Positions 1-36,405 of a stretch of 64,000 nt of DNA are shown here, piece after piece. The notes under the pieces are model-generated. The model was not told where the DNA came from. It saw only the letters and a list, made by a program, of their open reading frames with translations, and ran no database searches. The stretch spans positions 2,816,001 to 2,880,000 of the forward strand of contig OY729428.2 of the NCBI GenBank assembly GCA_963422375.2. The letters run 5' to 3'. This DNA is from Bryobacterales bacterium (GTDB lineage: Bacteria > Acidobacteriota > Terriglobia > Bryobacterales > UBA6623). Position numbers and translations under genes: made by a program. Within the stretch, counting starts at the first letter, position 1. Each line of letters begins with the position of its first letter.

Positions 1-1425
1 GACTGTCCAACACGCCAGCCCGCTGCCATGGCTAGTCTCTTCCACGAAGCGCCCGTACTCCTCCTGCGTCACCTCGTACACTCCCACCGCCAACGGCCCA
101 CTGATCGTCACACGGCGCTGAGGCCCTTCGTCGTTTTGCCTGCCGTCCTCTGTAGACGGAGACCCCATCGTGAACGAGCCCCCGGGCACTACTACCAGTT
201 CCGGACAGCCTTCGCAATCGTCGCGGAAGCGGTCCCCCGCGCGCAGGGGTGGCCGCAATCCGCGAATGAGAACCTTGGCTTGGTCCAGCAGCGGCTTGGC
301 CCGCGGAACCCCCTCGTACTTCTCGACGAAGGCATTCAGAGCCTTCAAGTTCTGGCTCTGCTCCACCATTGGCCACACTTGCTGCGCTTCCTCTGCAAGC
401 CGTTGCTGCTCCCGGCCCGATTCCGCCGCAGCGCGTTCCCCGCGCAGCTTCTCGCGAAGCGCTTCTGCGAGAGGCAGGACGATCTTGGCCTCGTCCTTGC
501 CCTTCCACCTCTCGATAAACTCATCCACCTTGCTCTCGCTGTCGGATCCGCTTAATAGCTTCCATTCTTCAAGCGCCGTCAATTCCCTTGAAGGCGGCGG
601 CACCGGATCGGCACCTGTTCCGGCGGGTGCACCGCGCAGATAGACCTTTCCGATCAGATCTTCATAGATCGCCGGATTCTGCTGCTTTCCCGAGGCAGCG
701 TACACTGCCGCCTTCGTGCGTTGGAAGGCTTCTCGTAACTCTACTACATCACGCTGGAGTTCCGGCAAGAAATGGGTAATATAGGTTCCGAACTCGTCTC
801 TGGAAGCGCCGCTTTCCATTCTGTTATTCCCCGTCGGGTACGCGATCAGGGTGCCTTCAGAACCCGCGCTCATCGCCGCCAGCCCAGCTACCATGCTCCC
901 GTCCTCCAGAAACGGATTGTCACGGCAAGCATCTAGCACGAGCACTCGTACGCGAGCGCTGGCCTCCAGCAAGTTGCGAACCGCGTCTGCCGACAGCGCG
1001 GCATCGGGCACCTTCGTCGCTGGGGTCTGGCCGTAGTCCGCCGGAAGAAGGTAGTTCCTACCATCGGCCTGCAACCCGTGTCCGGAGAACCAGAAGAACG
1101 CCAAGTCGTCGCCCTGCAACTCGCTACTGAAGTCCCTCACCGCACGGTCCATCTCCCGCAGGCTCAAGTTCTCGAGCCTTGTCACGCTGAATCCGAGTCC
1201 GCGCAATGCGCCCTCCAGCGCGCGCACTTCCGCGGTCGTGCTCTTCAGCGGCAGGGCCATCTCATAGGCGGCGTTGCCGATGACCAATGCCTTCCTCCCC
1301 GCTACGGCAACCGGCTGGAGCGCCCCATCCTGCGCCTCAAGCAACACCTGCGGCAGCGCAACGCCCAGCAGAGCTGCGGCCACGATGGTTCCGTGACAGA
1401 TCGATCGACGGTTGCAACAGGTCAT
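1..1425 (-). CDS. Caspase-like peptidase C14 domain + helical repeat linker + FGE-sulfatase/CLec domain protein (3' end outside window)
   Basis: Manual translation (not in the ORF track because there is no stop in the window). ATG at 1425 follows a GAGGAAG RBS. Hydrophobic N-terminus MTCCNRRSICHGTIVAAALLGVALPQVLLEAQ; then RKALVIGNAAY, FWFSGHG (catalytic His) and LVLDACR (catalytic Cys); then RFRDDCEGCPELVVVPGGSFTMGS...EGPQRRVTISGPLAVGVYEVT, homologous to the two DGR targets. Confidence 0.9.
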   Translation of the reverse strand, partial: MTCCNRRSICHGTIVAAALLGVALPQVLLEAQDGALQPVAVAGRKALVIGNAAYEMALPLKSTTAEVRALEGALRGLGFSVTRLENLSLREMDRAVRDFSSELQGDDLAFFWFSGHGLQADGRNYLLPADYGQTPATKVPDAALSADAVRNLLEASARVRVLVLDACRDNPFLEDGSMVAGLAAMSAGSEGTLIAYPTGNNRMESGASRDEFGTYITHFLPELQRDVVELREAFQRTKAAVYAASGKQQNPAIYEDLIGKVYLRGAPAGTGADPVPPPSRELTALEEWKLLSGSDSESKVDEFIERWKGKDEAKIVLPLAEALREKLRGERAAAESGREQQRLAEEAQQVWPMVEQSQNLKALNAFVEKYEGVPRAKPLLDQAKVLIRGLRPPLRAGDRFRDDCEGCPELVVVPGGSFTMGSPSTEDGRQNDEGPQRRVTISGPLAVGVYEVTQEEYGRFVEETSHGSGLACWTV

Positions 1426-4359: not shown

Positions 4360-5225
4360 GGAGAATGAGTGCTCTTCCTAATCGCGTCGCGACCTTGCCC
4401 GTTTCGAGGCGCAGCGCGAACGGAACTTGAATATACCGAATCCAACCTAATTCCCAGCTACTTGCGAAGTAGGTGGCTCGAACTGCCTGCGTGCGTTGGA
4501 AGGCGATTGGCTCACGGCGCCCATGCAGCAGAATCGTCTCATTCGACATGCCAAGACATGAGAACGCGGGAGTCGATGCGCGGCGCATACGAACGGCATC
4601 GAGTCGTTTTGGTCCCTGTTCAAGCGCGGCCTGTACGGAACCTATCACCGGATGAGCGTCCGTCATCTCGGCCGCTACCTCACGGAGTTCGCGGGACGGC
4701 GCAACGACCGCGACTGCGACACGGCGGAACGGATGCGGCGCATGGCGCGGGGCCTGGTCGGCCGGACGCTGACCTGCCGGCAGCTGACCGGCAAGGCCGC
4801 GGTCGCGGCCCGAGCGGCGCCCGCCGCGCCGAGCGCGGCAGCCCGCTGCGGGCGCGCTCTTCACGCTCGGTACGAGGGGCGCACCGGATCCGGCATGCCC
4901 CGGCGCGACCCCGGTCCGGTCCGGACCGTCCATGCAGGCCGTCGAGCGCCGGGGATCCGCTGTCTTCGGCCCTCGCAGGGCCTGCAAGCGGCTTGCAAGG
5001 CGTGCCCTGCCACCGCCAACCGGGTTTCACCGGGGCAACCGGGGCATGCGAGGCGGCCTCTCTAGTCCCTTCCTCGTCCAATCCGCTGGCAGGCTCGATT
5101 CACATACGATCCCACCCCCCACCCCTCTGTGCCCGCCGCGGCCGCACTCGCATGACCCCAGCTCGACACCCACCTCCCTGCTCACAGCAGTTCTAGGCCG
5201 ACATGGCGTTGTCGGCACTCAGATA

Positions 5226-17310: not shown

Positions 17311-18339
17311 GGCTCAATTCGCAAACCGTAGGCGCGGTCTGGCCATCGCCGCCTTGAGACACGCTCTGGGCGATGGCTGATCGCCGAGTTCGGTGAGATG
17401 GAACCACCTGAGATAGCTGTCCAAGTACTTGGTGGCGATGCCGCGCCGCCTGCGCAGAAAGCCCTTGATCTGGCTGTGGCGGCTATTGACCGTCTGGATG
17501 TGCACAGCACCCCGGACCCGCTCGCCAGCGGAAGCGTTGATGCTCTCGTGAGGGATGTCGAGTGCCTCCGCGACGGGCGGATAGCAGCGGTTGGCGTCGG
17601 AGACGAGCAAGGCATCGCGGGCGACGACCGGCTCCAGCACTTCCTTCACGCTCTTTGCGTTGAGGGCGGGCAGGGTATGGCTGAGGGTCTCGCCCGCACG
17701 GTCGGCGGCGACCAGGATCGGCACCTGCTCGCGCGAGAGGCCGCGTTTGCGGGCCTTGCCGCCGCGCCGGCGCGGCTTGCGGTCCAGCTTCCGCTCCCCC
17801 TTGCGGCTCTCCAGAACGAAGGTCTCGTCAGCCTCGACGATCCCGGCAAGCCGATCCGGCGCCTGGCGCACCGCCGCCGGAAAGCGGTGTCGCCAGCGAT
17901 GCGCCGTGCTCGGCGCAATCCCGCAGCGCTCGGCGGACTCCTTGACCGTCTCACCCTCGGCAAGCGAGGCGCCAAAGGCAAGCCAGCGCTCCTTATGGTG
18001 CAGACCCGACAGCGCTGTGCCGGTCAACGCACCGAACGTCTTCCCGCAGTCCTTGCACCGGAAACGGCGGAGACCGCGCGCCTTGCCCCGCGACACCGCC
18101 CCGCCGGCGCCGCAATGCGGACAGCGCCGCTCGTCATCCACGCCCAGATCGATCGCCGCCAGCGAGGCCGCGCCCTCCGAAGGCTCCGACAGCACCGCCG
18201 CCACCTCCCTGCGCTGCGCCGCCGTCAACTCATCGACACGCGAGAACCAATCCCGAAACCGCTCGTGATCCATCTGTCTGACCTCCAGGGCAAATCGGGC
18301 GACATTCTATCACGATGCCTACGATTCACGAATTGAGCC
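17311..18339 (-). mobile_element. IS1595-family insertion sequence (1029 bp)
   Basis: TIRs GGCTCAATTCG / CGAATTGAGCC (imperfect out to about 24 bp); 8-bp TSD AACGGAAT at 17303-17310 and 18340-18347. Confidence 0.95.
17314..18273 (-). CDS. IS1595-family (ISXO2-like) transposase
   Basis: CPHC...CKDC zinc ribbon, HTH, VEADETF, VSD, HIQTVNSRH, GIATKYLDSYLRWF; frame intact. Confidence 0.93.
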   Translation of the reverse strand: MDHERFRDWFSRVDELTAAQRREVAAVLSEPSEGAASLAAIDLGVDDERRCPHCGAGGAVSRGKARGLRRFRCKDCGKTFGALTGTALSGLHHKERWLAFGASLAEGETVKESAERCGIAPSTAHRWRHRFPAAVRQAPDRLAGIVEADETFVLESRKGERKLDRKPRRRGGKARKRGLSREQVPILVAADRAGETLSHTLPALNAKSVKEVLEPVVARDALLVSDANRCYPPVAEALDIPHESINASAGERVRGAVHIQTVNSRHSQIKGFLRRRRGIATKYLDSYLRWFHLTELGDQPSPRACLKAAMARPRLRFAN

Positions 18340-20974: not shown

Positions 20975-22735
20975 ATGGCCGGCCAAGACCCGCTCAGTGC
21001 AACCGCCCCCGCGGTGGATGACCAAGCCGCCAAGATCGAGATCCTGCTAGAGGCGTCCGAGGCGGCCGCATCCCATACGCTCGACTTCGCCGCGCTCATG
21101 GACGCGCTGGCGAAGCTGGTCCGCAAGATCGTCGACTACGAAATGTACTCGGTCCTCGTGCCGGCCGAGAACGGGGCGCTCCGGATCGCCCATTCGGACG
21201 GATACCCGGACGACCTGGTGCGCAGCCTCCGCATCCCCGTAGGAGAGGGCCTCACGGGCAAGGCCGCGAGCTCGCTCGCCACCGTGCGCAGCGACGACGT
21301 GCGCAGGGATCCCTGCTACCTGGGAGCCGTCGAGTCCGTGCGCAGCGAGCTGTCCGTACCCTTGGTCGCGCGCGGCCGGCTGGTCGCCGTGCTCGACCTG
21401 CAGTCGGCCTGCCCGAACGCCTTCGACGCGAGGGTGTCGGACCTCCTGGAGCTGGTGGCGTCGCGCTTCTCGCTGGCGATCGACGTCGCGCAGCTCTACC
21501 GGACGCTCCAAAGGCAGAACTCGATCCTGAGCACGCTGCGACGGATCGCCCAGGAGTTCTCGCATATCCTGCGTCTCGGGGATCTGCTCCAGGAGATCTC
21601 GACGGTAGTGCGCACGCTGATCCGCTACGACGTGCTGGCGATCTACCTCAAGGACCCGCAGCTGCCCGTTCTGCGGCATTACTTCGGCGTGAAGTTCGAG
21701 GAGCGGGTTCGCTGGACGGACATCGAGGTCGGCCGGGGCCTGGTGGGAACCGCCGCCGCGACACGCGAGGCGGTCCTGGTGGATGACACGAGCCTGGATC
21801 CGCGCTATATCGCCTCGACACCGGAAATCCGCTCGGAAGTCGCGGTCCCACTGATCCTGAAAAACGAGCTGGTCGGCGTGCTCGACCTGGAGTCTGCCCG
21901 CAAGTCCGGCTTCAGCCGGCAGGACGCCGACACGCTGCTCCTGCTGGCCCCGCAGATCGCGGCCGCGGTCGAGAACGCCCGCCTCTACGAGGAGGTGTCC
22001 CGTAGCGAGGCCCGGCTCGAACAGGATCTCGCAGCGGCTCGCGCCCTCCAGAGGCACATGCTGCCGCACGGGATTCTCAGCGCCCCGGGCACCGAGATCG
22101 CCGCGCGAAACGCACCGGTGGCGGTGGTTTCCGGGGATTTCTACGACTATTACGACCGCGGGCACTTGATCGGGATCCTCAACGGCGACGTCAGCGGCAA
22201 GGGAGCGGCGGCGGCCCTGTACGCCGCTCTGGCGAGCGGTCTGCTCCGCACGGCGGCGCGCTCGGGGCTCACGCCCGCCGAGACGTTCGCGCAGGTCAAC
22301 GACTCCCTCCTCGACCGGAAGATCGAGGCCCGCTTCCTAGCCGCCCATCTCTTCCAGTGGACGCCTTCGACGCGCCGACTGGTGCTGGCCGGAGCCGGCA
22401 TGCCCTTTCCCCACCTCTGCCGCAACGGCCGGGTGCGGGAGATCCGCCTGGAGGGCCTGCCTTTAGGCCTGTTCCGGTCCGCGCAGTACGACGAGGTGTC
22501 GCTGGAGCTGCAACCGGGAGACTTCGTGGTGTCCGTGTCCGACGGCATCGGCGAAAGCGCGAATCACGGCAACGAACCGTACGGCGACGAGCGTCTCCGG
22601 CGGGTCCTCGAAGCCTGTCGCGACGCATCCGCCGCGGCGATCCTGGAGCGCGTTTTCGACGATCTCGAGCGGTTCTCCGCGGGCTGCGCGCAAGTCGACG
22701 ACCGGACGGCCGTCGTCCTGCGCGTCACGCCGTGA
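20975..22735 (+). CDS. GAF-GAF-PP2C/SpoIIE (RsbU-like) serine phosphatase
   Basis: Two GAF domains (RSELSVPL, RSEVAVPL); SGDFYD, GDVSGKG, SDG, DDRT. Confidence 0.92.
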   Translation: MAGQDPLSATAPAVDDQAAKIEILLEASEAAASHTLDFAALMDALAKLVRKIVDYEMYSVLVPAENGALRIAHSDGYPDDLVRSLRIPVGEGLTGKAASSLATVRSDDVRRDPCYLGAVESVRSELSVPLVARGRLVAVLDLQSACPNAFDARVSDLLELVASRFSLAIDVAQLYRTLQRQNSILSTLRRIAQEFSHILRLGDLLQEISTVVRTLIRYDVLAIYLKDPQLPVLRHYFGVKFEERVRWTDIEVGRGLVGTAAATREAVLVDDTSLDPRYIASTPEIRSEVAVPLILKNELVGVLDLESARKSGFSRQDADTLLLLAPQIAAAVENARLYEEVSRSEARLEQDLAAARALQRHMLPHGILSAPGTEIAARNAPVAVVSGDFYDYYDRGHLIGILNGDVSGKGAAAALYAALASGLLRTAARSGLTPAETFAQVNDSLLDRKIEARFLAAHLFQWTPSTRRLVLAGAGMPFPHLCRNGRVREIRLEGLPLGLFRSAQYDEVSLELQPGDFVVSVSDGIGESANHGNEPYGDERLRRVLEACRDASAAAILERVFDDLERFSAGCAQVDDRTAVVLRVTP

Positions 22736-24092: not shown

Positions 24093-27221
<3,129 letters not shown>

Positions 27222-27237
27222 CCGCGTCTCCCGCCGG

Positions 27238-28482
27238 CTAGTCGTACTCCCCGGCGAGGAACCACTCGCCCGTGGTTCTCTCGCAGCAGGCCCGGTACAG
27301 GCGCCGCTGGACCTCGACGTCCCATTCCTGGTACTGCCAGCCTTCCGGCGTCCACCACTCGCCCGAGACACGCCAGGGCCCGGCGCAGGCCGTCACGGGC
27401 CCGCGAGCCTCCCGCGCCTCGACACGGACGGGACGGCCGCCGCGCAGGGTCACCTCCGCTGGGCTCGACGGCCGGAAGCAGCGGAAGGCCAAGGAGCTCC
27501 TCGGAGGGACGGCCACCCGGAGAGAGCGCGGCTGCCGGCGTTCCCGCGAGAGTCCGGGCGAGCCCGGCGCAAGGCCGGTCCCGCACCCTGCCGCGGGCGG
27601 GCGGAACGCCGCCAGCGCCGCCGCGCCGGGCCGGTGCGTGTCCGGAACCACCGGCGCCCCGGCCCGCCCGTCCCCGACCAAGCAGGCCAGCCGCGCCAGC
27701 GTCACCGCCAGGGTCTCCGGATCCGGCAGGTCGGGCGGCGCGAACAGGGACGCCTGCACCCGCCGGCGCTCGGCTGGCTCGGCCGACACGCGCACGCCCT
27801 CGACCGAGCCGCCCGGGGGATGCGCTTACAGGTCGACCATCCGCCCGCGCGGCAAGGTCGCCAGATCGCCGATCTTGCGCACGCCCCAGCGCTCCAAGGT
27901 CGCTCGGTCCTTGCCGTCCAAGGGCAGCAAGTCGAGGGGCAGATCCTGCAGGAAGCCGGGCTCCTGCCCCGGGTACACGTGGGTCACGCCCGGCTGCGTG
28001 CGCGCCGCGCACAGGGCGACGAAGCGGTTGCAGGCGACGCCGACACTAGCGCGGAGTCCGAGCCGGGCGGCGCCCGCGACCAGGCCCGCGGCCGCGGCGT
28101 AGGGATCGTGCAAGCCCGCGAAGTCCAGCGCGAGCAGGCCGGGCGCGACCTCCTCGAATAGCGGCGTCGCCGTCTCGGCCAGCTTCAGCAGCCGGGCATG
28201 GGCCCTCCGCTCCGCCCCGACGTCGCGGTCGAGAACCAGCAGCGGCCGCTGCGCCCCGGCAACGGAATAGCGCGCCTGCGCAGCAGCCAGAACCATGCCC
28301 TCGCGCACTCCTAGCGACCTAACGCGCGCGTCGGCGGCGTAGACGAACCGGTTGGGCGGCTCGCCGCAAGCGACCGTCGTCGGCTGCGGCCGGCGCTCTC
28401 CCGCCTGCAGCACGGCGACGGGGAAGTCGGGCACGTGCAGCGCGGCGTACAGGCGGGCGGCACCGGAGGGCCGCGCTGTCAT
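27238..28482 (-). pseudogene. imuB: ImuB (Y-family polymerase-like) with in-frame stop and apparent internal deletion
   Basis: LYAALHVPDFP...ERWGVRKIGDLATLP, then TAA at 27826-27828, then in the same frame AHPP...VQASLF...GPWRVSGEWW...GEYD. The central region looks shorter than typical ImuB. Confidence 0.85.
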
Positions 28483-29201
28483 CTCGCTCTCCCCGGACGC
28501 AGGCCGCGCACTCTGTCCCGGACGATTTCCGCGCGAATGCCGATGCCTCCCAGCAGGCCGTCCCACTCGGTCCGCTCGCGGCGCAGCTCCAGCACCACGT
28601 CCGCAACGCTGCCGGCCACGTGCTTGGCGGCCAGCACGACCAGTGCCGCGGGCGTACCTTCCACGGCCTGCCTGAGCCGCGTCCACGTCCGCCGCTGCCA
28701 GTCGCCGAGCTGGCGGTCGGAAAGCCCTCCGAGGTCGACCGCGATCAAGCCGAAGCCGCCTGCCGAGACGACCAGGTTCGTCGCGGACCAAGCCTCGTCC
28801 GCAGGCGAGAGGCTCCGCGCTCCCGGGTCGCGACGGAGAGTCCCCGGATCGCCGCAGCGGACCCACAGCAGCCGCTCCAGCAGCACCCCGGCCTGCTCCG
28901 CCGAGCGGGGATCCAAGCAGTCGGTCGCGTCGACGTACGCGGCGATCTCGCTCGCTCGGGTCAGCCGGGCGAGAGCGGCCAGGACCAAGCCCGTGCGACC
29001 GGACGAGCACGGCCCGGTGACTTCGCTGATCGCGCCGCGGGGGAGACCGCCGCCGAGCCGGGCGTCCACGCTCTCGATCCCGCTCGGCACGGGGGGATGA
29101 CGGGGCTTGGCCCGTCCGGGAAGGGTCCGGCCGAACCCGCGCTTCCGGACCAGCTCCTCAATCACTCCGATGCTCTTGGGCAATGCGGCGGGACAAGACA
29201 T
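28479..29201 (-). CDS. imuA: ImuA / RecA-like protein
   Basis: SGIESVDARLGGGLPRGAISEVTGPCSSGRT; its stop overlaps the imuB start (ATGA). Confidence 0.85.
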   Translation of the reverse strand: MSCPAALPKSIGVIEELVRKRGFGRTLPGRAKPRHPPVPSGIESVDARLGGGLPRGAISEVTGPCSSGRTGLVLAALARLTRASEIAAYVDATDCLDPRSAEQAGVLLERLLWVRCGDPGTLRRDPGARSLSPADEAWSATNLVVSAGGFGLIAVDLGGLSDRQLGDWQRRTWTRLRQAVEGTPAALVVLAAKHVAGSVADVVLELRRERTEWDGLLGGIGIRAEIVRDRVRGLRPGRAR

Positions 29202-29259: not shown

Positions 29260-29500
29260 TGCGCTGCGCACCGAGACCACCGTCAACGACACTCACGACT
29301 TCGGCATCGACCGGAGGCTGGGCACCCTAGACAGCATCGCGCCGATCAGCTGCGCAGTCGGCCGGGACCGACGGCCAGCGCGCGCCCTGCGCTTCGGGGA
29401 CGCCCGCGTGCTGCGCCCGGACCTGTCGGCGGCCTTCGCGGCCTGCCTCCACTCGGCACCCCTGCGCAAGGCCCTCGCACTCTTCGACCGCGAGACGAGC
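29260..29500 (+). pseudogene. Degraded mobile-element gene fragment (putative)
   Basis: LRTETTVNDTHDFGI..RL and RALRFGDARV resemble segments of IS-associated proteins. Family not identified. Confidence 0.3.
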
Positions 29501-29856
29501 AGCTTCGGGAGGGCCAGTCGATCGCCGCGTGGAACTCCGGTGTCAACGTTCCGCATCGACAAGCAATCTAGGTGCAGGAATACCGAGAAGCGGAAACGCG
29601 GGAGTCTTCACGCGACGCCTAGCTGGGCGCAAGCGTCTCGGAGAGGGATGCTGTCGCGATGGCGAGCTGGCAAGCTTTCGATGTCAGGCACAGCGCCAGC
29701 GCGGGGACCCTGTATTACTGGCTGTGTACAAGCTGGGCTAACCGAGAGCGGCTGCGGGAACCATCGCCTACCGCACAATTCCGACAAGCCCCGTGCGCGC
29801 TACCCGGGCACGGGGGCAGTGCCCCCGCCTGATCGAATCCAGTCGCCACGGCGGTC

Positions 29857-30014
29857 GCGCCTGCAACGGCCTTCGAGCCCGGGCAGGCCTACCAGACGTC
29901 GCAGGCGCTATGGGTTGTTTGTCCGGCCGCCTGCCGGAGCGGGATGAACCGCTTGGACACGGCGATGGCACGCGGGCGAGGTCCTTGAACCGCGCCCTCT
30001 GGCGCCGTCGTGTG
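29857..30014 (-). ncRNA. Structured spacer 3' of TR (part of the DGR RNA)
   Basis: Three stem-loops directly after the TR: 29974-29997, 29922-29938, and a 12-bp stem 29857-29868/29897-29908. Confidence 0.55.
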
Positions 30015-30136
30015 CTCAGCACGCGGAAGCCCAGGTTGCTGTTGCGGTTGCCGGGGCTGTTCCTGTTGCGGTTCGCCGACCGGCCGTTCTGCGGATGGTT
30101 GTTCCAGCTGCCGCCCCGATTGACCCGGTTGGAGCC
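30015..30136 (-). repeat. DGR template repeat (TR)
   Basis: Reads GSNRVNRGGSWNNHPQNGRSANRNRNSPGNRNSNLGFRVL with 11 AAY codons; matches VR-A and VR-B with mismatches concentrated at adenines. Confidence 0.97.
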
Positions 30137-30147
30137 TGCTACGGCGG

Positions 30148-31161
30148 TCACCCCAGATGCAAGGATACCTCGAACACCTGCCTGCGCGCCATGTGGCAGT
30201 CTGCGTGACTGACGTGCGCGACCATGCTACGCACGAACTGCGCGAGCTCGTCCTCGGAGATCTTTCCGTGTCGGTATGCCCTCTCCCGGCCTCGGACGCG
30301 ACGGCGCAACCGCGCCCATTGGCGGCCATCGAGCCTCAGCAAGACGGGAAAGACGCGGAAGCCGAGGAATGGAATCCCTTGGGTCACGGGAGCGAGCCTA
30401 GTGTGTTCCTCCCGCAGATCTAGTCGCAGCGTCTCCGACAGGAATTCCCGGACGGCAGCCAGAGCCTCGTGCAGCCGAGGCTTATCACGAGCGAAGACCG
30501 CGACATCGTCCATGTAGCGCACGTAGCCCGGCAGGCGCAGCCTGTCCTTGACGAAATGGTCCAACTCGCCCAGATACATGTTCGCGAAGTACTGGCTCGT
30601 GAGATTCCCGATGGGGACACCCTTCCCCGGCGCACATCCTGGAATCGGATGGTCGACTATCCCGTCGATGAGCGCTAGCAACGCCTTGTCCTTGACCTTG
30701 CGCCTCCACATCGCCTTGAGCACGTCGTGGTCAATCGTCTCGAAGTACTGGCGGACGTCGCAGAGTAGCGCGTAGGGGAATCGCCGCGCAAAGTGCTGCA
30801 CTCGACGCACGGCCGCGTGAGTGCCGCGGCTCCTTCGGCACGCACAACTGTCGTCGATCAGACCCTGCTCGACGATCGGATCGAGAACGTTGCAGAGAGA
30901 GTGGTGAACCACCCTGTCGCGGAAGTCCGCCGCGCAGATCTTGCGGGGCTTCGGCTCGCGGATCTCGAACACACGATACGGACGCATCCGGTAGCGGCCG
31001 GACTGCAGATCCTCCTGCAGCATGAGCAAGTTGGACTCCAAGTGGAACACGAACCTAGCAATGCCGACGTTCCCCTGCTTTCCCCGCCGTGCGGCATAAG
31101 CGGCATCCAGCAGGCTCCGATACTCGGTGACCTGCTCGAACAGGTGCCCGTGTCGTTTCAT
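30148..31161 (-). CDS. DGR reverse transcriptase
   Basis: FRDRVVHH, GTHAA, GVPIGNLTSQYFAN (SQ motif), YVRYMDD, FLGF; 337 aa with no maturase or endonuclease domain; flanked by avd and TR. Confidence 0.96.
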   Translation of the reverse strand: MKRHGHLFEQVTEYRSLLDAAYAARRGKQGNVGIARFVFHLESNLLMLQEDLQSGRYRMRPYRVFEIREPKPRKICAADFRDRVVHHSLCNVLDPIVEQGLIDDSCACRRSRGTHAAVRRVQHFARRFPYALLCDVRQYFETIDHDVLKAMWRRKVKDKALLALIDGIVDHPIPGCAPGKGVPIGNLTSQYFANMYLGELDHFVKDRLRLPGYVRYMDDVAVFARDKPRLHEALAAVREFLSETLRLDLREEHTRLAPVTQGIPFLGFRVFPVLLRLDGRQWARLRRRVRGRERAYRHGKISEDELAQFVRSMVAHVSHADCHMARRQVFEVSLHLG

Positions 31162-31511
31162 CGGCCCGCCTGCTGCTTGCGCCAGCCTCCGAGCATAGCG
31201 CCAACCTCGCTCATGCGGCGCATGGCGTACTCGCAGCGCGAGTGCGGGAAGTAGCCCACCACATGGCAGATCCGCAGCAAGATTCTCAGCTTCTCGAGAC
31301 GCAGGTTAGCACGCGCCAAGACCGGCTGCTTGGCGCGGGAATACCGCGCCTCGACCAAGTCCTCGGCCATATCGAGGGCTAGGTTGTCGATGCGGTTGGA
31401 AAAAGTGAAACGGACATGCTTAGGGAGCTTGGCGGTCGTCGGCAGCAACCAGTTCAGGAAATCCAGCCACGCAACGAAGACAGGCAGGTCCCCGTCTGAC
31501 CTCGTGCCCAT
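31158..31511 (-). CDS. avd: DGR accessory variability determinant (four-helix bundle)
   Basis: 117 aa; PKHVRFTFSNRIDN, LEKLRILLR, EVGAMLGGW; ATGA overlap with RT. Confidence 0.92.
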   Translation of the reverse strand: MGTRSDGDLPVFVAWLDFLNWLLPTTAKLPKHVRFTFSNRIDNLALDMAEDLVEARYSRAKQPVLARANLRLEKLRILLRICHVVGYFPHSRCEYAMRRMSEVGAMLGGWRKQQAGR

Positions 31512-31515
31512 GGAA

Positions 31516-32065
31516 CTAGGCCCCTTCCAAGAGGGGCGGTTTGGCCGGAGGAGCGGCCGGGCCGGTCATGTCCCGCTTGCCCTTGCTCGCGTTGCTACCG
31601 CTAGCGGACCGTAACCCAGAACTGGGGGGCATCGACAGCAGTTCCTACCCGTATTTTTCCAGCTTGGCCTTTCCGATGCCCTCGATCTCGCCCAGCTTGC
31701 CTAGGCTGCGCGGCCTAGCTTTGATCATCGCTACGAGCTGCTTGTTCGTGCAGATTAGGTAAGGCGGCACGCCATCTCTCTTGCTACGCTCCGCTCGCCA
31801 GTCGCGCAGCGCGTTGAAGAGCGGCATATCCGCGTCCTTTAGGTCGACCTGCCTCCCGTCGCTCGGGTCGCGAGCGCCTCGCCCGGGGGGAGGGGGGCTC
31901 CATCGCGTAGGTCACGACCGCCGCTAGATACGGAATGTCTTCGCGCATGAAGAAATGGTCGCGAATCGAAAGCACGTGCTTCCCCTTCAGGAAGTCGCAC
32001 AAAGGCTGGTCATTGAAGGCGTCAAGCACACGATCAAAACGCATTGTAATGATTCTGGCTAGCAT
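31516..32065 (-). pseudogene. HRDC-domain DGR accessory gene (frameshift plus nonsense codon)
   Basis: LFNALRDWRAERSKRDGVPPYLICTNKQL...IEGIGKAKLEKYG is an HRDC domain. Frame change near the C6-T-C6 tract (31885-31897); TAG at 31645-31647 with the frame continuing (ELL...) to a TAG 4 nt before avd. Confidence 0.85.
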
Positions 32066-32084
32066 TGTCCCTCTTCAATGGCCT

Positions 32085-32160
32085 GCGGCTTGGCTGCGGT
32101 CGTGCCGTTCGATGCGGCCTGCTTCGCGCCCGTCTCGTCGGCCCGCCTCCGCCAAGCCGC
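32085..32160 (-). repeat. Inverted repeat downstream of VR-A (candidate DGR homing hairpin)
   Basis: GCGGCTTGGC (32085-32094) / GCCAAGCCGC (32151-32160). Confidence 0.6.
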
Positions 32161-32195
32161 TTCTGCAAAGAGAAATAGAGTAACAGCGCAAAGGG

Positions 32196-34784
32196 CTAGG
32201 GAATTGTCCTCAGCACGCGGAAGCCCACGCCGCTGCCGCGGTTGCCGGGGCTGAGCCTGAAGCGGTACGCCGACCGGCCGTACCGCGGACCGTCGCCCCA
32301 GCTGCCGCCCCGAAGGACCCGGTCGGAGCCCGTAGCGGGGCCTCGCGGATCTGTCGCAGCGCCGCTCGGGTAGGACCCGTACCAGTCCTGCACCCACTCC
32401 CATACATTTCCGTGTACGTCGTGCAAGCCGAAAGCGTTTCGACTGAATGACCCCACCGGAGCCGTATGCACGTAGCCGTCCCGACACGGCGCGACCCCGA
32501 CCCAACGGTAGTGGTCCGCTCCGACTTGGTCTGCCAAGTTTCCGTACCCGCAGGTCCGCGTGTAGTCCGGATCATCGCCATAGGAAAAGCTGGTTTCCGA
32601 TGCCGCCCGAGCCACGTACTCCCACTCCGCCTCGGTCGGCAACCGATACTTCTCGCCTGTCTTCCCCGACAGCCACTTCACGTACGCCTGAGCATCGTTC
32701 CAAGACACACACACCGCGGGCTCCTGCCGACCCTGGCGGAACCCGGGATTCGTCCACGATCGCCCGGTGCGAGCATCCCATTCCCCGCTCTCGTGAGTCC
32801 GGCACGCCGACCCGCCGTCATGGCCGGCGTCATCCACGAATCGCCCGTACTGCTCCTTCGTCACTTCGTACACTCCTACCGCCAGCGGGCCGCTGATTGT
32901 CACGCGGCGACGAGGCCCCTCATCGTCCTCCCGGTCATTCTCATACGCCGGCGACCCCATCATGAATGAGCCCCCGTCCACCACCACCATCTCCGGACAG
33001 CCGTCGCAGTCCCGCAAGCGGTCCTCCGCCTCCGGGCGCGGACGCAATTCACGGAGCAGCACTCGAGCCTGTTCCAGCAGCCCCTCGGCTCCGGCAACCC
33101 CGTCGTACTTTTCGATAAAGGCCTCTGCCGCTTTCGAGTTCCGGCTCCGCTCCACGAATGCCCAGGCATCCCCCGCTTCCTCGGCAAGCTCCCTTGCGAG
33201 GCGCTCGTTTCGCAGCCTCCCGAGCAGCACTTCGGCGAGAGGCAGGACCACCCGAGCATCCTCCCGTCCCTGCCACTCCCGGATGAATTCCTCCACCTCG
33301 TCCTCGCTGTCGGAGTCCTCCATCGACTTCCATTCGTCAAGAGCTGTCGATTCAGCCGGTGGGGAGTTGGAGGGCCCTGACTGGTTCGGTGGCTCAATTG
33401 TCTCCTGTGCCTTTCCGGCCGGGCGGTCGTCCGAGGGCGGAGGCGACACGACTGTGGCGCTGGGAGGCCCAAGCTTCGGGACTGCCTTGGGCATCGCCGG
33501 CGATGCGCCGTTTTCGGCCTTCTTCGAACCCTCTGGCTCTGACGACTCGGTCGTGGCACCAGCAGAGTCAGTCTCTTGCGGCGGCGTATCTGCCGTGGCA
33601 ACCCCTCCTGCGTTGTCGCGACCGTCTGGATCCGGCCCGGGCCCTGCCGACCTTGAATCCGACACCGGGGCACGCCCGCCCTCATCTTCGATGTCCCCTG
33701 GCGAACCTCCCTCCGGCACTCCAATGACGACCGCTGCAAGCAAGGCTGCGGCCACGGCGGCAGCCCCGAGGGCCACTGCCCATCGCGCGGTCGAACGAGA
33801 CCGCCCCGGGGGCTGAACCGAGGGCTCCTCGGCGACGCGTCCCGGCCCCTCCAAGAGCCCCGCGAGTTCCGCGCAGTCCTGTACTCGGTCCGCCTCCTTC
33901 AGTGCGATGCATCGGTCAATCGCCGCGAGAATCCTTTCAGGGAACCGCCCCGCTCCCACCTCACGCGCCGGGGGCAGCGGATCCTCTTGCCCCCGCGCGA
34001 ACGCGGTCAGTCGCGACTCCACCTTCACCGGCTGCCGGGAGACCGCCTCGTCCGCACCCCCGGCGACCATCCGCCACATCACCGCCCCGACCGCGTACAG
34101 GTCCGTCCACGGCCCCAGCTTGCCTTCCCCGACCTGCTCAATCGCCGCGAATCCCTCCGTGTACGGGGCGTACGACCGCGACATTCCGGCGAGAGTCTGC
34201 TTCGCCGCCTCGAAGTCGATCAGCACGGCCCGGTTCTCTTCCCGGTCCACCTCTCGCCGAATAAGGATGTTGCTCGGCTTGATGTCCCTGTGCAGCACGC
34301 CGGCGTCGTGGACCGCCTTCAACCCTCCCAGCAGCGGCACTGTCACCGCCAGCAGATCGGCCTCCCCGAACGGCCTCCCCGCGCGCTCCCGCCGCGCCAG
34401 CAGGTCCGCCAGCGACATGCCTTCCTCGTAATCCATCACGAGGTACGCCGTGCCGTTCTCCCGGAAGAAATCCCTGCACGTCACCACGTTGGGGACGTCC
34501 TTGAATTCGGTCAGGCGCTTCGCTTCCCCGAGAAACCTATGCAGGCCCTCCGCGAAGTCCGCCCCGCGAGCCTGGCTGCTCGGATGCACCGTGCCCGCCT
34601 CGCGGACGGACAGCTCGGCGGGGAAATACTCCTTGATCGCGACGAGGAATCCAAGGTCCCGGTGCAGCGCCTTGTAGACGATGCCGAAACCGTCGTGCCC
34701 CAGCTGCGCCTGCACCTCGTACATGCCGTTGAGAAGCAGGCTGCCCGCTGGCAGCGCGACACGGGATCTGCCCTCTCCGCCCAT
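32196..34784 (-). CDS. DGR adjacent target A: Ser/Thr (pseudo)kinase - TM - low-complexity and helical linker - FGE/CLec domain with variable repeat
   Basis: Start MGGEG chosen by homology to target B; GHDGFG, VAIKE, HRDIKPSN, DFE; TM segment WAVALGAAAVAAALLAAVVIGVP; FGE motifs; VR at the C-terminus. Confidence 0.95.
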   Translation of the reverse strand: MGGEGRSRVALPAGSLLLNGMYEVQAQLGHDGFGIVYKALHRDLGFLVAIKEYFPAELSVREAGTVHPSSQARGADFAEGLHRFLGEAKRLTEFKDVPNVVTCRDFFRENGTAYLVMDYEEGMSLADLLARRERAGRPFGEADLLAVTVPLLGGLKAVHDAGVLHRDIKPSNILIRREVDREENRAVLIDFEAAKQTLAGMSRSYAPYTEGFAAIEQVGEGKLGPWTDLYAVGAVMWRMVAGGADEAVSRQPVKVESRLTAFARGQEDPLPPAREVGAGRFPERILAAIDRCIALKEADRVQDCAELAGLLEGPGRVAEEPSVQPPGRSRSTARWAVALGAAAVAAALLAAVVIGVPEGGSPGDIEDEGGRAPVSDSRSAGPGPDPDGRDNAGGVATADTPPQETDSAGATTESSEPEGSKKAENGASPAMPKAVPKLGPPSATVVSPPPSDDRPAGKAQETIEPPNQSGPSNSPPAESTALDEWKSMEDSDSEDEVEEFIREWQGREDARVVLPLAEVLLGRLRNERLARELAEEAGDAWAFVERSRNSKAAEAFIEKYDGVAGAEGLLEQARVLLRELRPRPEAEDRLRDCDGCPEMVVVDGGSFMMGSPAYENDREDDEGPRRRVTISGPLAVGVYEVTKEQYGRFVDDAGHDGGSACRTHESGEWDARTGRSWTNPGFRQGRQEPAVCVSWNDAQAYVKWLSGKTGEKYRLPTEAEWEYVARAASETSFSYGDDPDYTRTCGYGNLADQVGADHYRWVGVAPCRDGYVHTAPVGSFSRNAFGLHDVHGNVWEWVQDWYGSYPSGAATDPRGPATGSDRVLRGGSWGDGPRYGRSAYRFRLSPGNRGSGVGFRVLRTIP
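32209..32330 (-). repeat. DGR variable repeat VR-A
   Basis: 122-nt ungapped match to TR with 20 mismatches, 18 at TR adenines. Confidence 0.96.
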
Positions 34785-34954: not shown

Positions 34955-36405
34955 GAGAATTATATATCTGAGTGCCGAGGGAATCAAGTCGGCAAATTAT
35001 CAAGCCATAATAAGATTTCATATTTCTTCCGAATTTCCATTGAAATTCTGTGGTGTTTCTTGGTAGAATAGTTCCAGTATGGGATACCGTAAATGAAGAA
35101 ACAAGATCCCGGAAAGTGGTTCCGCAAAGGCATCACATTGATCGAAGTGATCGCCATGTTCTCCGATGACGAATCCGCGGAAAAATGGTTCGCCTCCATG
35201 CGCTGGCCGGACGGTCCCGCGTGCCCCCGCTGCCGCGGCTCCAGCGTGCAGTCCGGCGCGGCCGACCCTTCGATGCCGTACCGTTGCCGCGGCTGCGGCA
35301 AGCGCTTTGCCGTACGCACCGGCAGCGTGACGGCCGACACCAAGCTCGGCTACCGCACCCGGGCCGTCGCCCTGTTCCTGCTGACCACCGGCATCAAGGG
35401 CGTCTCGAGCATGAAGCTGCACCGCGACCTAGGCATCAGCCGGAAGTCGGCCCGGCACCTGGCGCACCGCATCCGCGCGTGCCGGGAGCGGGATCAGGGC
35501 CTGTTCGCCGGCCCGGCGGAGGTGGACGAGACCTGCGTCGGCGGCAAGGAACGCAACAAGCACGAGAGGAAGAAGGCCCGCGCCGGGCGCGGGCCCGTCG
35601 GCAAGACCCCGGTGGCGGGGGCGCGGGACCGCGCCACGCCCGGGGCGCAGGTCCGCTCCGACGAGGCGGCGGCCTGCGCCGGCATGGCGGAGTTCGCGCG
35701 CGAAGCCGTCAGGCACTCCGGCGGCGAGTACGTGCGCGGGGCAGGGCATACGAACGGCATCGAATCGTTCTGGTCCCTGTTCAAGCGCGGCCTGTACGGC
35801 ACCTATCACCGGATGAGCGTCCGTCATCCGGGTCGCTACCTCACGGAGTTCGCGGGATGGTACAACGACCGCGACTGCGACACGGCGGAACGGATGCGGC
35901 GCATGGCGCGGGGCTTGGTCGGCCGGACGCTGACCTACCGGCAGCTGACCGGCAAGGCCGCGGTCGCGGCCCGAGCGGCGCCCGCCGCGCTGAGCGCGGC
36001 AGCCCGCTGCGGGCGCGCTCTTCACGCTCGGTGCGCTCGGTGCGCTGCACACTCGGTACGAGGGGCGCACCGGATCCGGCATGCCCCGGTGCGCCCCCAG
36101 TCCGGCCCGGACCGTCCATGCAGGCCGTCGAGCGCCGGGGATCCGCTGTCTTCGGCCCTCGCAGGGCCTGCAATCGGCTTGCAAGGGGCGCCCTGCCACC
36201 GCCAACCGGGTTCCACCGGGGCATGCGAGGCGGCCTCTCTAGTCCCTTCCTCGTCCAATCCGCTGGCAGGCTCGATTCAGATGCGATCCCACCCCTCCGT
36301 GCCCGTCGCGGCCGCACTCGAATGACCCGAGCTCGACACCGACCTCCCTGCTCACAGCAGTTCTAGTCGGACATGGCGTTGTCGGCACTCAGATACATAA
36401 TTCCC
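34955..36405 (+). mobile_element. IS1595-family element (probably defective)
   Basis: TIRs GAGAATTATATATCTGAGTGCCG / CGGCACTCAGATACATAATTCCC; no matching TSD on its own flanks. Confidence 0.9.
35093..36325 (+). pseudogene. IS1595 transposase with apparent internal deletion and read-through tail
   Basis: RWPDGPACPRC...CRGC, EVDET, SDE, HTNGIESFWSLFKRG, YRQL. The stretch between DRAT and PGAQV is unusually short. Confidence 0.75.

Follow-up and report, generated by a model that had tools for sequence, protein, structure and literature searches.

An Avd-type diversity-generating retroelement and its three paralogous targets, probable receptor kinases, in a Bryobacterales bacterium

In this study we examined a stretch of 64,000 nucleotides from a Bryobacterales bacterium (Acidobacteriota; GenBank assembly GCA_963422375.2, contig OY729428.2, positions 2,816,001 to 2,880,000 of the forward strand), referred to below as the window, and analysed the diversity-generating retroelement (DGR) located at its positions 29,857 to 34,784. 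Judged by its gene content and surroundings, the element is a cellular (chromosomal), Avd-type DGR, and it has probably diversified, in an Avd-dependent manner, three paralogous membrane receptor kinases, two of which are encoded in the window and the third 1.47 Mb away. The variable repeats (VRs) at the ends of these three genes differ from the template repeat (TR) of the element mainly at its adenines, each of the encoded proteins has a single hydrophobic segment with a biased charge distribution between its kinase and variable domains, and a covarying structured RNA directly follows the TR.

Identity of the retroelement

All components lie on the minus strand in the order target gene, HRDC gene, avd, reverse transcriptase (RT) gene and TR (Table 1), which is the order given in an initial annotation of this DNA. 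The frames of RT and avd are open, as had been stated there, and the RT carries the IGNLTSQ and YMDD motifs. Neither a group II intron nor a retron enzyme is its nearest solved relative: the best match was the 328-aa RT chain 8ub7_A (E 2e-61, query residues 2-324 on chain residues 3-314), which we take to be the Bordetella phage bRT, as compared with 7e-23 for GsI-IIC and 4e-16 for a retron-type RT. For this protein all NCBIfam intron, retron and Drt models remained below their cut-offs, and an Rfam scan of positions 29300-32300 recovered no intron RNA family. The genome contains only one DGR-type RT; a second RT-like frame (G000:C1:1225124-1225813), which is 29% identical to it, has an in-frame TGA.

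The DGR is surrounded by housekeeping genes and insertion sequence (IS) genes. Comparison of 26 open reading frames (ORFs) of the window with PHROGs, together with two Pfam scans, revealed no phage structural, lysis or integration family, which bears out the earlier statement that phage genes are not visible.

Table 1. Coordinates of the DGR components, the target proteins and associated features (window positions, unless a contig is named)
Feature	Position	Strand	Remarks
Spacer-like structured RNA	29853-30031	minus	17-nt overlap with the end of the TR; extends about 160 nt beyond it
TR, template repeat	30015-30136	minus	29 adenines (composition count); pairwise alignment to VRs
RT, 337 aa	30148-31161	minus	RVT_1 2.6e-15; IGNLTSQ and YMDD in translation
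avd, 117 aa	31158-31511	minus	Pfam bAvd 1.2e-15; NCBIfam DivGenRetAVD 98.7 bits (equivalog cut-off 80)
HRDC accessory gene, split	31645-32065	minus	ORFs 31784-32065 and 31645-31827; Pfam HRDC 1.4e-18 (31645-31827)
Target A, 862 aa	32196-34784	minus	Pkinase 8.9e-29, one hydrophobic segment, linker, FGE-sulfatase 3.8e-54
Target A, kinase	about 34056-34721	minus	
Target A, hydrophobic helix	33723-33779	minus	residues 336-354; Kyte-Doolittle (KD) 2.65
Target A, linker			about 240 aa, acidic/Pro-rich and helical
Target A, FGE/CLec-fold domain	32208-32999	minus	VR in last 45 codons
VR-A, C-terminus of target A	32209-32330	minus	20 mismatches to TR, 18 at TR adenines
Target B, 640 aa	2437-4359	minus	kinase with DFG, helix residues 333-351 (KD 2.35), short linker, FGE/CLec fold
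VR-B, second variable repeat	2450-2571	minus	27.6 kb from TR; 19 mismatches to TR, 17 at adenines
Duplicated 3' flank of target B	2141-2436	minus	130-nt intergenic stretch shared with A, and HRDC fragment
Target C, 612 aa from first Met	1.47 Mb away		helix residues 359-377, KD 2.28
VR-C	contig C2:1379827-1379948 (same contig, 1.47 Mb away)		16 mismatches to TR, 15 at adenines
End of L005 (caspase-FGE protein)	immediately left of window		33 mismatches to TR, 18 at adenines
End of L006 (kinase-helix-FGE protein)	immediately left of window		36 mismatches to TR, 18 at adenines
IS1595-family element	34957-36403	plus	22-nt terminal inverted repeats 34957-34978 and 36382-36403
IS1595-family copies in window	34957-36403, 4585-5225, 17314-18273, 63572-64000		
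Loci matching the RNA covariance model	L024-L029, L033, L040, L046, L049, L055, L061, L069, L074, L082, L084		

Template repeat, variable repeats and adenine bias

The TR and VR-A can be aligned without gaps over 122 columns, of which 102 are invariant and 20 mismatched, with 18 of the mismatches at TR adenines; the initial annotation had described this match correctly, and the pair was the longest direct repeat recovered by a repeat finder. For this element that annotation had listed target A. Its VR is indeed a clean one, but two more targets, those ending in VR-B and VR-C, have to be added, since a search of the whole genome with the TR returned five further matches, namely the three VRs and the ends of the genes L005 and L006. 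The 122-nt TR core contains 29 A, 43 C, 39 G and 11 T, and the hypergeometric probability of the observed adenine bias is 3.6e-12 for VR-A (at least 18 of 20), 2.7e-11 for VR-B and 1.8e-10 for VR-C.

VR-A, VR-B and VR-C are clean VRs. When they are compared with one another, differences fall at TR-adenine positions in 4 of 6 (A-B), 12 of 15 (A-C) and 11 of 14 (B-C) cases. Those between VR-A and VR-B are confined to the last 36 nt (positions 87-116 of 122), and the resulting boundary fits either a partial homing event or the edge of a conversion tract. The three VRs have in common a stretch of about 110 nt on their 3' side, which the TR does not possess. The ends of L005 and L006 are degenerate and look like those of decayed former targets; the C-terminal 125 nt of L006 are 70% like the TR, and this gene is probably a former or a never-used target.

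The placement of the adenines in the TR follows the reading frame: 28 of the 29 lie inside its 40 full codons, 15 of them in the first position, 13 in the second and none in the third. There are 17 variable codons, none of which can be mutated to a stop, and the number of protein variants that could be derived from the TR was computed to be about 10^16.4.

It might be argued that the similarity between the TR and the VRs reflects nothing but ordinary paralogy of FGE gene ends, the neighbouring RT being an unrelated enzyme of a group II intron or a retron. In favour of such a scenario, the TR region is itself recognised as the terminal part of an FGE-sulfatase domain, and the genome has 11 FGE-domain matches. 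However, the mismatch spectrum lies beyond neutral divergence in three independent copies (P of about 1e-10 to 1e-12), the RT is far closer to 8ub7 than to introns or retrons, Rfam yielded only a sub-threshold RT-3 match (see below), and both Avd and the structured RNA are present. Simple paralogy next to an unrelated RT is thus refuted by the adenine mismatch pattern, the RT match and the Avd score, and we attribute next to no probability to it.

Structured RNA downstream of the TR

The sequence of about 165 nt after the TR is conserved in five DGR loci of the same genus and folds to 53 pairs. This RNA (Spacer-like RNA in Table 1) contains a 10-bp stem with a tetraloop cap and an unpaired ACAAACAAC stretch. 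In the five sequences 86.7% of cells pair, in comparison with 37-43% when the partners are slid; 13 pairs are changed on both sides, and the covariation score was reached by none of 500 shuffles. A covariance model built on these five sequences produced full-length matches in 16 further sources (Table 1) of 87 searched, and every match lies on the RT strand, directly after the RT and the TR. The matching records include ones from planctomycetes, acidobacteria, Desulfobulbaceae and Magnetococcus. Among 22 aligned matches a compensatory change was observed in 49 of the 53 pairs, and 87.4% of cells pair versus 35-42% in the slid controls, values that have to be read in the light of the fitting of this alignment to the covariance model, which favours structure. 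The RNA of the window scores 170.6 bits on the model.

The sole Rfam match within 29300-32300 was to RT-3 (RF03068) at 29858-29967. With 18.6 bits against a gathering threshold of 40.5 (E 0.19) it does not establish membership and is a hint only; the four same-genus loci gave no Rfam match at E<=1. The RNA may be a diverged or wider form of the RT-3 motif. A structured element with a tetraloop-capped stem-loop has been reported after the TR in 207 of 278 Avd-type DGRs (Handa et al., 10.1101/2023.10.23.563531). As predicted from its sequence, the RNA described here matches that element in place and kind.

Target proteins

The initial annotation had assigned to target A a kinase, a transmembrane helix, a linker and an FGE/CLec domain with a C-terminal VR, and had placed its start at 34784. 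Pfam and hydropathy agree on this layout, and the start matches that of paralogue B; a longer ORF, extending up to 35021, represents read-through into IS-flanking sequence and was rejected. The genome contains four genes in which a kinase domain is followed by an FGE domain, and three of them are the DGR targets.

Hydropathy was expressed as the KD mean over 19 residues, with a membrane threshold of 1.6. Each target has exactly one segment above this value (KD 2.28-2.65), situated between the kinase and CLec domains, where a membrane helix had been proposed. In each case the 15 residues on the kinase side of the segment include 3-4 Lys/Arg and 0-1 Asp/Glu. Because the positive charges sit on the kinase side, the positive-inside rule would place the kinase in the cytoplasm and the variable domain outside, and this hydrophobic helix with its basic kinase-side flank, common to all three targets, supports the reading of these proteins as receptor kinases.

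An AlphaFold model of target B (51 homologues, mean predicted local distance difference test score (pLDDT) 75.9) has a kinase fold at about residues 10-310, a lone helix at 329-348 (low pLDDT) and an FGE fold at 370-640; its template modelling (TM) scores in Foldseek were 0.87 to PpkA and 0.84 to PvdO. The same proteins are the closest solved relatives by sequence, PpkA (5hnv, E 1.3e-45) for the kinase domain and PvdO (5hha, 5.6e-48) for the C-terminal domain of target B, the latter being followed by human and bacterial FGEs and by TvpA (2y3c, 5.5e-15). Targets B and C carry the Hanks motifs (Gly-rich loop, VAIK Lys, HRD...N and DFG), and K51, H165-R166-D167, K169 and D186-F187-G188 are invariant in the 51 homologues.

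An alignment with the Streptomyces FGE (6muj, 2q17), which was read directly, revealed that the LCHDSYC stretch of the enzyme is replaced by WGDGPRY, which is variable-region sequence, and that both catalytic copper-binding cysteine positions hold variable residues matching adenine-bearing codons of the TR. Since the stretch with the catalytic cysteines is replaced by variable-region residues, the FGE-fold domain would be a binding scaffold rather than an enzyme; to judge from this alignment, it keeps the fold, not the chemistry.

The family to which target B belongs is large (E<=1e-20 for 7032 of 8000 scored candidates), and among the matches listed the order kinase then FGE was found in 118 of 119 cases. 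In 109 of these 118 close homologues a hydrophobic segment is kept between the two domains. The nine which do not have it could be taken to favour a different view, in which the segment does not span the membrane, or does so in the opposite orientation, and a cytoplasmic variable FGE domain tunes substrate choice or autoinhibition. Most cyanobacterial kinase-CLec proteins are predicted to be cytosolic (PMC7517822), which would suit such an arrangement, as would the low pLDDT of the helix in the model of target B. The same may be said of a kinase-FGE target from a Heliomicrobium metagenome-assembled genome (MAG; locus L030), in which no segment exceeds KD 1.6. We nevertheless consider a cytoplasmic variable domain highly improbable: the segments of the three targets lie far above the threshold, one in each protein, the basic residues cluster on the kinase side, and the closest solved relatives, PpkA and PvdO, are a membrane kinase with an outside sensor and a periplasmic protein, respectively.

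Relations among the targets and state of the element

The kinase halves of targets A and B have an identity of 85.7%. A block of 1157 nt, which begins with the FGE domain (33056) and continues past the stop codon to 31899, thereby taking in the 130-nt intergenic stretch, is 95% identical. The duplicated 3' flank of target B includes a fragment of the HRDC gene comprising its first 57 or so codons, with a 1-nt gap. Target C shares with A and B only about 350 nt (84-85% identity), which consist of the VR together with approximately 110 nt in front of it and approximately 110 nt past the stop; over the remainder of its FGE domain the protein identity to A/B is 47%. Because receptors that have otherwise diverged possess a VR-plus-flank module in common, new targets may be recruited by recombination between paralogues.

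Thirteen public sequencing runs from nine studies, none recorded as RNA, hold part or all of the locus. Logan contigs of four of them (X1, X4, X5 and X6) were aligned; such contigs are blind to minority VR variants. At the six VR positions which separate A from B, X1 has VR-A letters only and X4 and X5 have VR-B letters only, the latter switching together with B-type letters at non-VR sites (32179, 32500-32605); a third form of the VR did not turn up in these contigs. The depth of the X1, X4 and X5 contigs over the VR/FGE region (32138-33001) is about 1.5-2 times single-copy. This suggests that both loci carry one form per sample, i.e. that gene conversion takes place between the 3' modules, although collapsed contigs offer an alternative account of the A-only and B-only pattern. 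The VR contig of X6 differs from the window at 16 of 149 positions (10.7%; one of these positions is listed), as compared with about 1.4-2.3% in flanking contigs.

The HRDC gene was found beside avd, in the order initially given, but it is not intact. A tblastn comparison with the intact same-genus orthologues of genomes G017 and G019 (185-193 aa), which adjoin RTs 66-67% identical to ours, located a change of frame in a C6-T-C6 run (31885-31897) and a premature TAG (31645-31647) where the orthologues carry Gln. The contigs of X1, X4 and X5 have the same C6-T-C6 run as the window, without a gap. In X6 the second C run is one base longer (C7 instead of C6), and the tract is thus length-polymorphic; as far as the listed differences go, frame arithmetic indicates that the extra base leaves the frame unrestored (the window needs -1 or +2). 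It is also at this run, opposite position 31899, that the similarity of loci A and B at the DNA level breaks off.

Several observations weigh against the interpretation of the element as a DGR that diversifies three receptor kinases. Non-adenine mismatches account for 2 of 20 in VR-A, both on TR cytosines (the coding strand being the minus strand), and for 2 of 19 in VR-B. DNA folds of 146-nt stretches gave no convincing hairpin or element resembling an initiation of mutagenic homing (IMH) site 3' of the VRs; the fold z-scores of the downstream stretches were -2.0 for A, 0.0 for B, -0.3 for C and +0.1 for the TR, and the hairpins of B and C were no better than those of shuffles. The proposed topology is deduced from hydropathy and charge. 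Target A reads DFE (GAG, 34209-34211), in a region where the X1 contig shows no differences, whereas the DFG glycine is present in 51 of 51 aligned homologues; because this invariant glycine is replaced, target A may be a weakened kinase. It may also be severed from its promoter, because an IS is inserted 173 nt upstream of its start codon. The HRDC gene is frame-shifted and TAG-truncated both in the window and in the contigs of three same-species runs. Finally, no new adenine-site VR variants were detected in the contigs of X1, X4 and X5, in which minority variants are invisible.

Taken further, part of this evidence would fit a genuine DGR which has become inactive or barely active, its VRs being fossils of past homing that are now subject to ordinary mutation and to gene conversion between paralogues. 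The broken HRDC gene, the DFE of target A and the IS upstream of it, from a family with 246 blastn matches genome-wide (7 near full length), point in this direction. So do the VR-like ends of L005 and L006 (18 of 33 and 18 of 36 mismatches at adenines); because two paralogues carry such degenerate ends, targets do decay in this genome. The exclusively A-type or B-type letters of X1, X4 and X5, which co-switch with flanking non-VR sites, likewise resemble gene conversion and not fresh homing. On the other hand, RT and avd are open and retain their catalytic and family signatures, the TR has kept all 29 adenines and its stop-free codon design, and the structured RNA is intact, with the high score given above. 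Of the 372 DGRs surveyed by Wu et al. (2018, PMC5758913) 14 possess an HRDC gene, so that this gene is not generally required, and in both loci of the same-genus genome G021 HRDC is frame-broken while RT and avd are open. The excess of differences in the VR contig of the related strain X6 over its flanks may likewise count against a fossil. Decay to inactivity is therefore quite possible, if on balance doubtful; the system looks complete, and its present activity is uncertain.

Distribution in related bacteria

RT homologues (E<=1e-20) were identified in 6 of 24 other genomes of the same genus and in none of 16 genomes from other genera of the order. The closest same-genus RTs (66-69% identical) are associated with non-kinase FGE targets. 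The genome G007, with an RT about 41% identical to that of the window, represents a second DGR lineage in the genus, and its target is an orthologous kinase-helix-FGE protein (17 of 20 mismatches at adenines, helix at residues 331-349). The public RT loci retrieved come from other phyla and are at most 59% identical to the window RT. In total, 86 RT loci were examined (80 public and 6 same-genus), many of them short, so that the following counts are lower bounds: an FGE-domain match was found in at least 60, and a kinase match near FGE in at least 4, among them the Heliomicrobium locus mentioned above.

PpkA-like kinase matches number at least 30 in G017, 13 in G007 and 9 in the source genome, and by these counts the genus has an expanded set of PpkA-like kinase domains. 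Many of the paralogues of G017, which differ in their C-terminal parts, are grouped within about 400 kb (C5:1.68-2.07 Mb).

Proposed mechanism and significance

If the element works as the Bordetella phage DGR does, its avd-RT-TR region would be transcribed, and a complex of RT and Avd would bind the structured RNA that follows the TR on its 3' side and prime cDNA synthesis there. The RT would misincorporate opposite template adenines, and the mutated cDNA would then replace the homologous variable repeat. In the products of targets A, B and C a PpkA-like Hanks kinase would be located in the cytoplasm and connected by one membrane helix with a periplasmic FGE/CLec-fold domain, so that an outward ligand pocket would be open to about 10^16 forms, with the kinase and the membrane anchor remaining constant. 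Binding of a ligand outside the cell would presumably alter the activity of the kinase inside.

A bolder proposal, which we regard as speculative and somewhat unlikely, is that the three independently diversified single-pass receptor kinases constitute a maintained repertoire, in which binding to a hypervariable periplasmic pocket is translated into Ser/Thr phosphorylation, as a bacterial counterpart of lectin receptor-like kinases. The VR-plus-flank module would, on this proposal, spread between paralogues and recruit further receptors to the one template. If this were true, the cell could come to recognise new ligands in its surroundings, such as phage parts, competitors, kin or host surfaces, within generations and feed the signal into an expanded PpkA-like kinase network.

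If the DGR is active, it would provide a compact system in which a hypervariable sensor is wired to a kinase, and not to a phage tail or a surface adhesin. It offers one template, three receptors of the same fold with different linkers, intact and DFE kinases, and natural strains that differ in their VRs. The published surveys, in their available portions, list kinase targets without a ligand, a topology test or a signalling output. Against this background the present element is of value as a well-documented example that includes a trans target at a distance of 1.47 Mb, and as evidence that several phyla have conserved the Spacer-like RNA of this RT clade.

Genomic neighbourhood

No target-site duplication is visible at the IS1595-family copy at 34957-36403. 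Copies of this family lie upstream of both target A and target B (4585-5225 in the case of B), and the depth of the IS in public-run contigs reaches several hundred times single-copy.

The DGR is adjoined by an SOS-type mutagenesis cassette (24093-29201, minus strand), about 800 nt from the TR, and two different mutagenic systems thus lie side by side. The cassette contains dnaE2, whose product, an error-prone DNA polymerase, scores 1201 bits in NCBIfam (cut-off 939). It further includes a Y-family gene resembling imuB (27826-29010) and a gene resembling imuA (28479-29201), the latter scoring below its cut-off.

At the left edge of the window lies L005 (window 1-1425, G000:C2:2815404-2817446), which encodes a protein with a signal-peptide-like N-terminus, a Peptidase_C14 (caspase) domain and an FGE domain with the degenerate VR-like end; it parallels the orthocaspase-CLec paralogues known from cyanobacteria. 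L006 (G000:C2:2812472-2814751), situated left of the window, encodes a fourth protein of the kinase-helix-FGE type, with its helix at residues 342-360. About 10 kb from target A, a Ser/Thr phosphatase of GAF-GAF-PP2C (SpoIIE-type) architecture is encoded on the plus strand (20975-22735), and is a candidate counter-enzyme of the target kinases.

Comparison with known systems

The closest published parallels are found in cyanobacteria, where Ser/Thr kinases are the commonest functional domain of variable proteins; most of the kinase-CLec proteins are predicted there to be cytosolic and some transmembrane, and ligand-gated control of the kinase has been proposed (Vallota-Eastman et al. 2020, PMC7517822). 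These proteins resemble our targets in having an N-terminal Hanks-type kinase and a VR in a C-terminal CLec/FGE fold. Further common features are the presence of several paralogous targets per genome, some of them remote, and of caspase-like paralogues with the same C-terminal domain. They differ in their mostly cytosolic location, whereas in all three targets described here one helix lies between the domains. Moreover, the present host is not a cyanobacterium (67% GC) and carries an HRDC remnant, and none of the cyanobacterial RTs retrieved is more than about 43% identical to that of the window.

In the survey by Wu et al. (PMC5758913) a kinase-containing target composition is listed as b12, and HRDC-containing DGRs constitute Architecture C. 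The element of the window agrees with that survey in its kinase target, in the combination of HRDC with avd (seen in about half of the 14 HRDC-containing DGRs) and in its avd-RT-TR order, which corresponds to architecture B2; it differs in that its HRDC gene is split and truncated. Kinases annotated as Pkn1 or PknD, with the VR in a CLec domain, are among the few frequently annotated targets of a 2024 MAG survey, and Pkinase and transmembrane domains are among the target domains described for Thiohalocapsa PB-PSB1 (Dore et al. 2024, PMC10907252). The Thiohalocapsa DGRs are likewise cellular, with CLec targets that bear signalling domains and are predicted on both sides of the membrane, but they sit within conflict systems of the STAND NTPase or MoxR/vWA kind. 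No STAND NTPase or MoxR/vWA partner was found next to target A or B in the Pfam and PHROGs scans of the window.

TvpA of Treponema denticola (2y3c) has the same FGE-type CLec fold with a C-terminal VR, and the targets of that DGR are also dispersed in the genome. TvpA is a lipoprotein and is not known to carry a kinase, whereas here the variable domain is joined to a kinase through a membrane helix. PpkA of Pseudomonas aeruginosa, the closest solved relative of the kinase domain by both E-value and TM-score, is a single-pass membrane kinase whose outside sensor domain is of the vWA type and is not known to be diversified. No type VI secretion genes turned up beside the targets, in scans that included no search aimed at them. 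The RT of the window is homologous over its full length to chain 8ub7, taken above to be the bRT of phage BPP-1. With the DGR of this phage the present element also shares Avd and a structured RNA with a tetraloop-capped stem-loop directly after the TR (10.1101/2023.10.23.563531). It differs in being cellular, in its avd-RT-TR order and in its signalling targets, the BPP-1 system being phage-borne, ordered avd-TR-RT and directed at a tail fibre; in addition, no IMH or cruciform was recognised here.

In the light of these studies the initial annotation overrated the novelty of the system, since targets combining a Ser/Thr kinase with a CLec domain had already been published, are frequent, and are mentioned there in transmembrane forms as well. 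An explicit treatment of the outward-facing receptor-kinase form was not found in the literature searched, supplements and subscription papers aside. The element does not create a new category; it is a well-preserved example of a target class already described, that of the kinase-CLec proteins.

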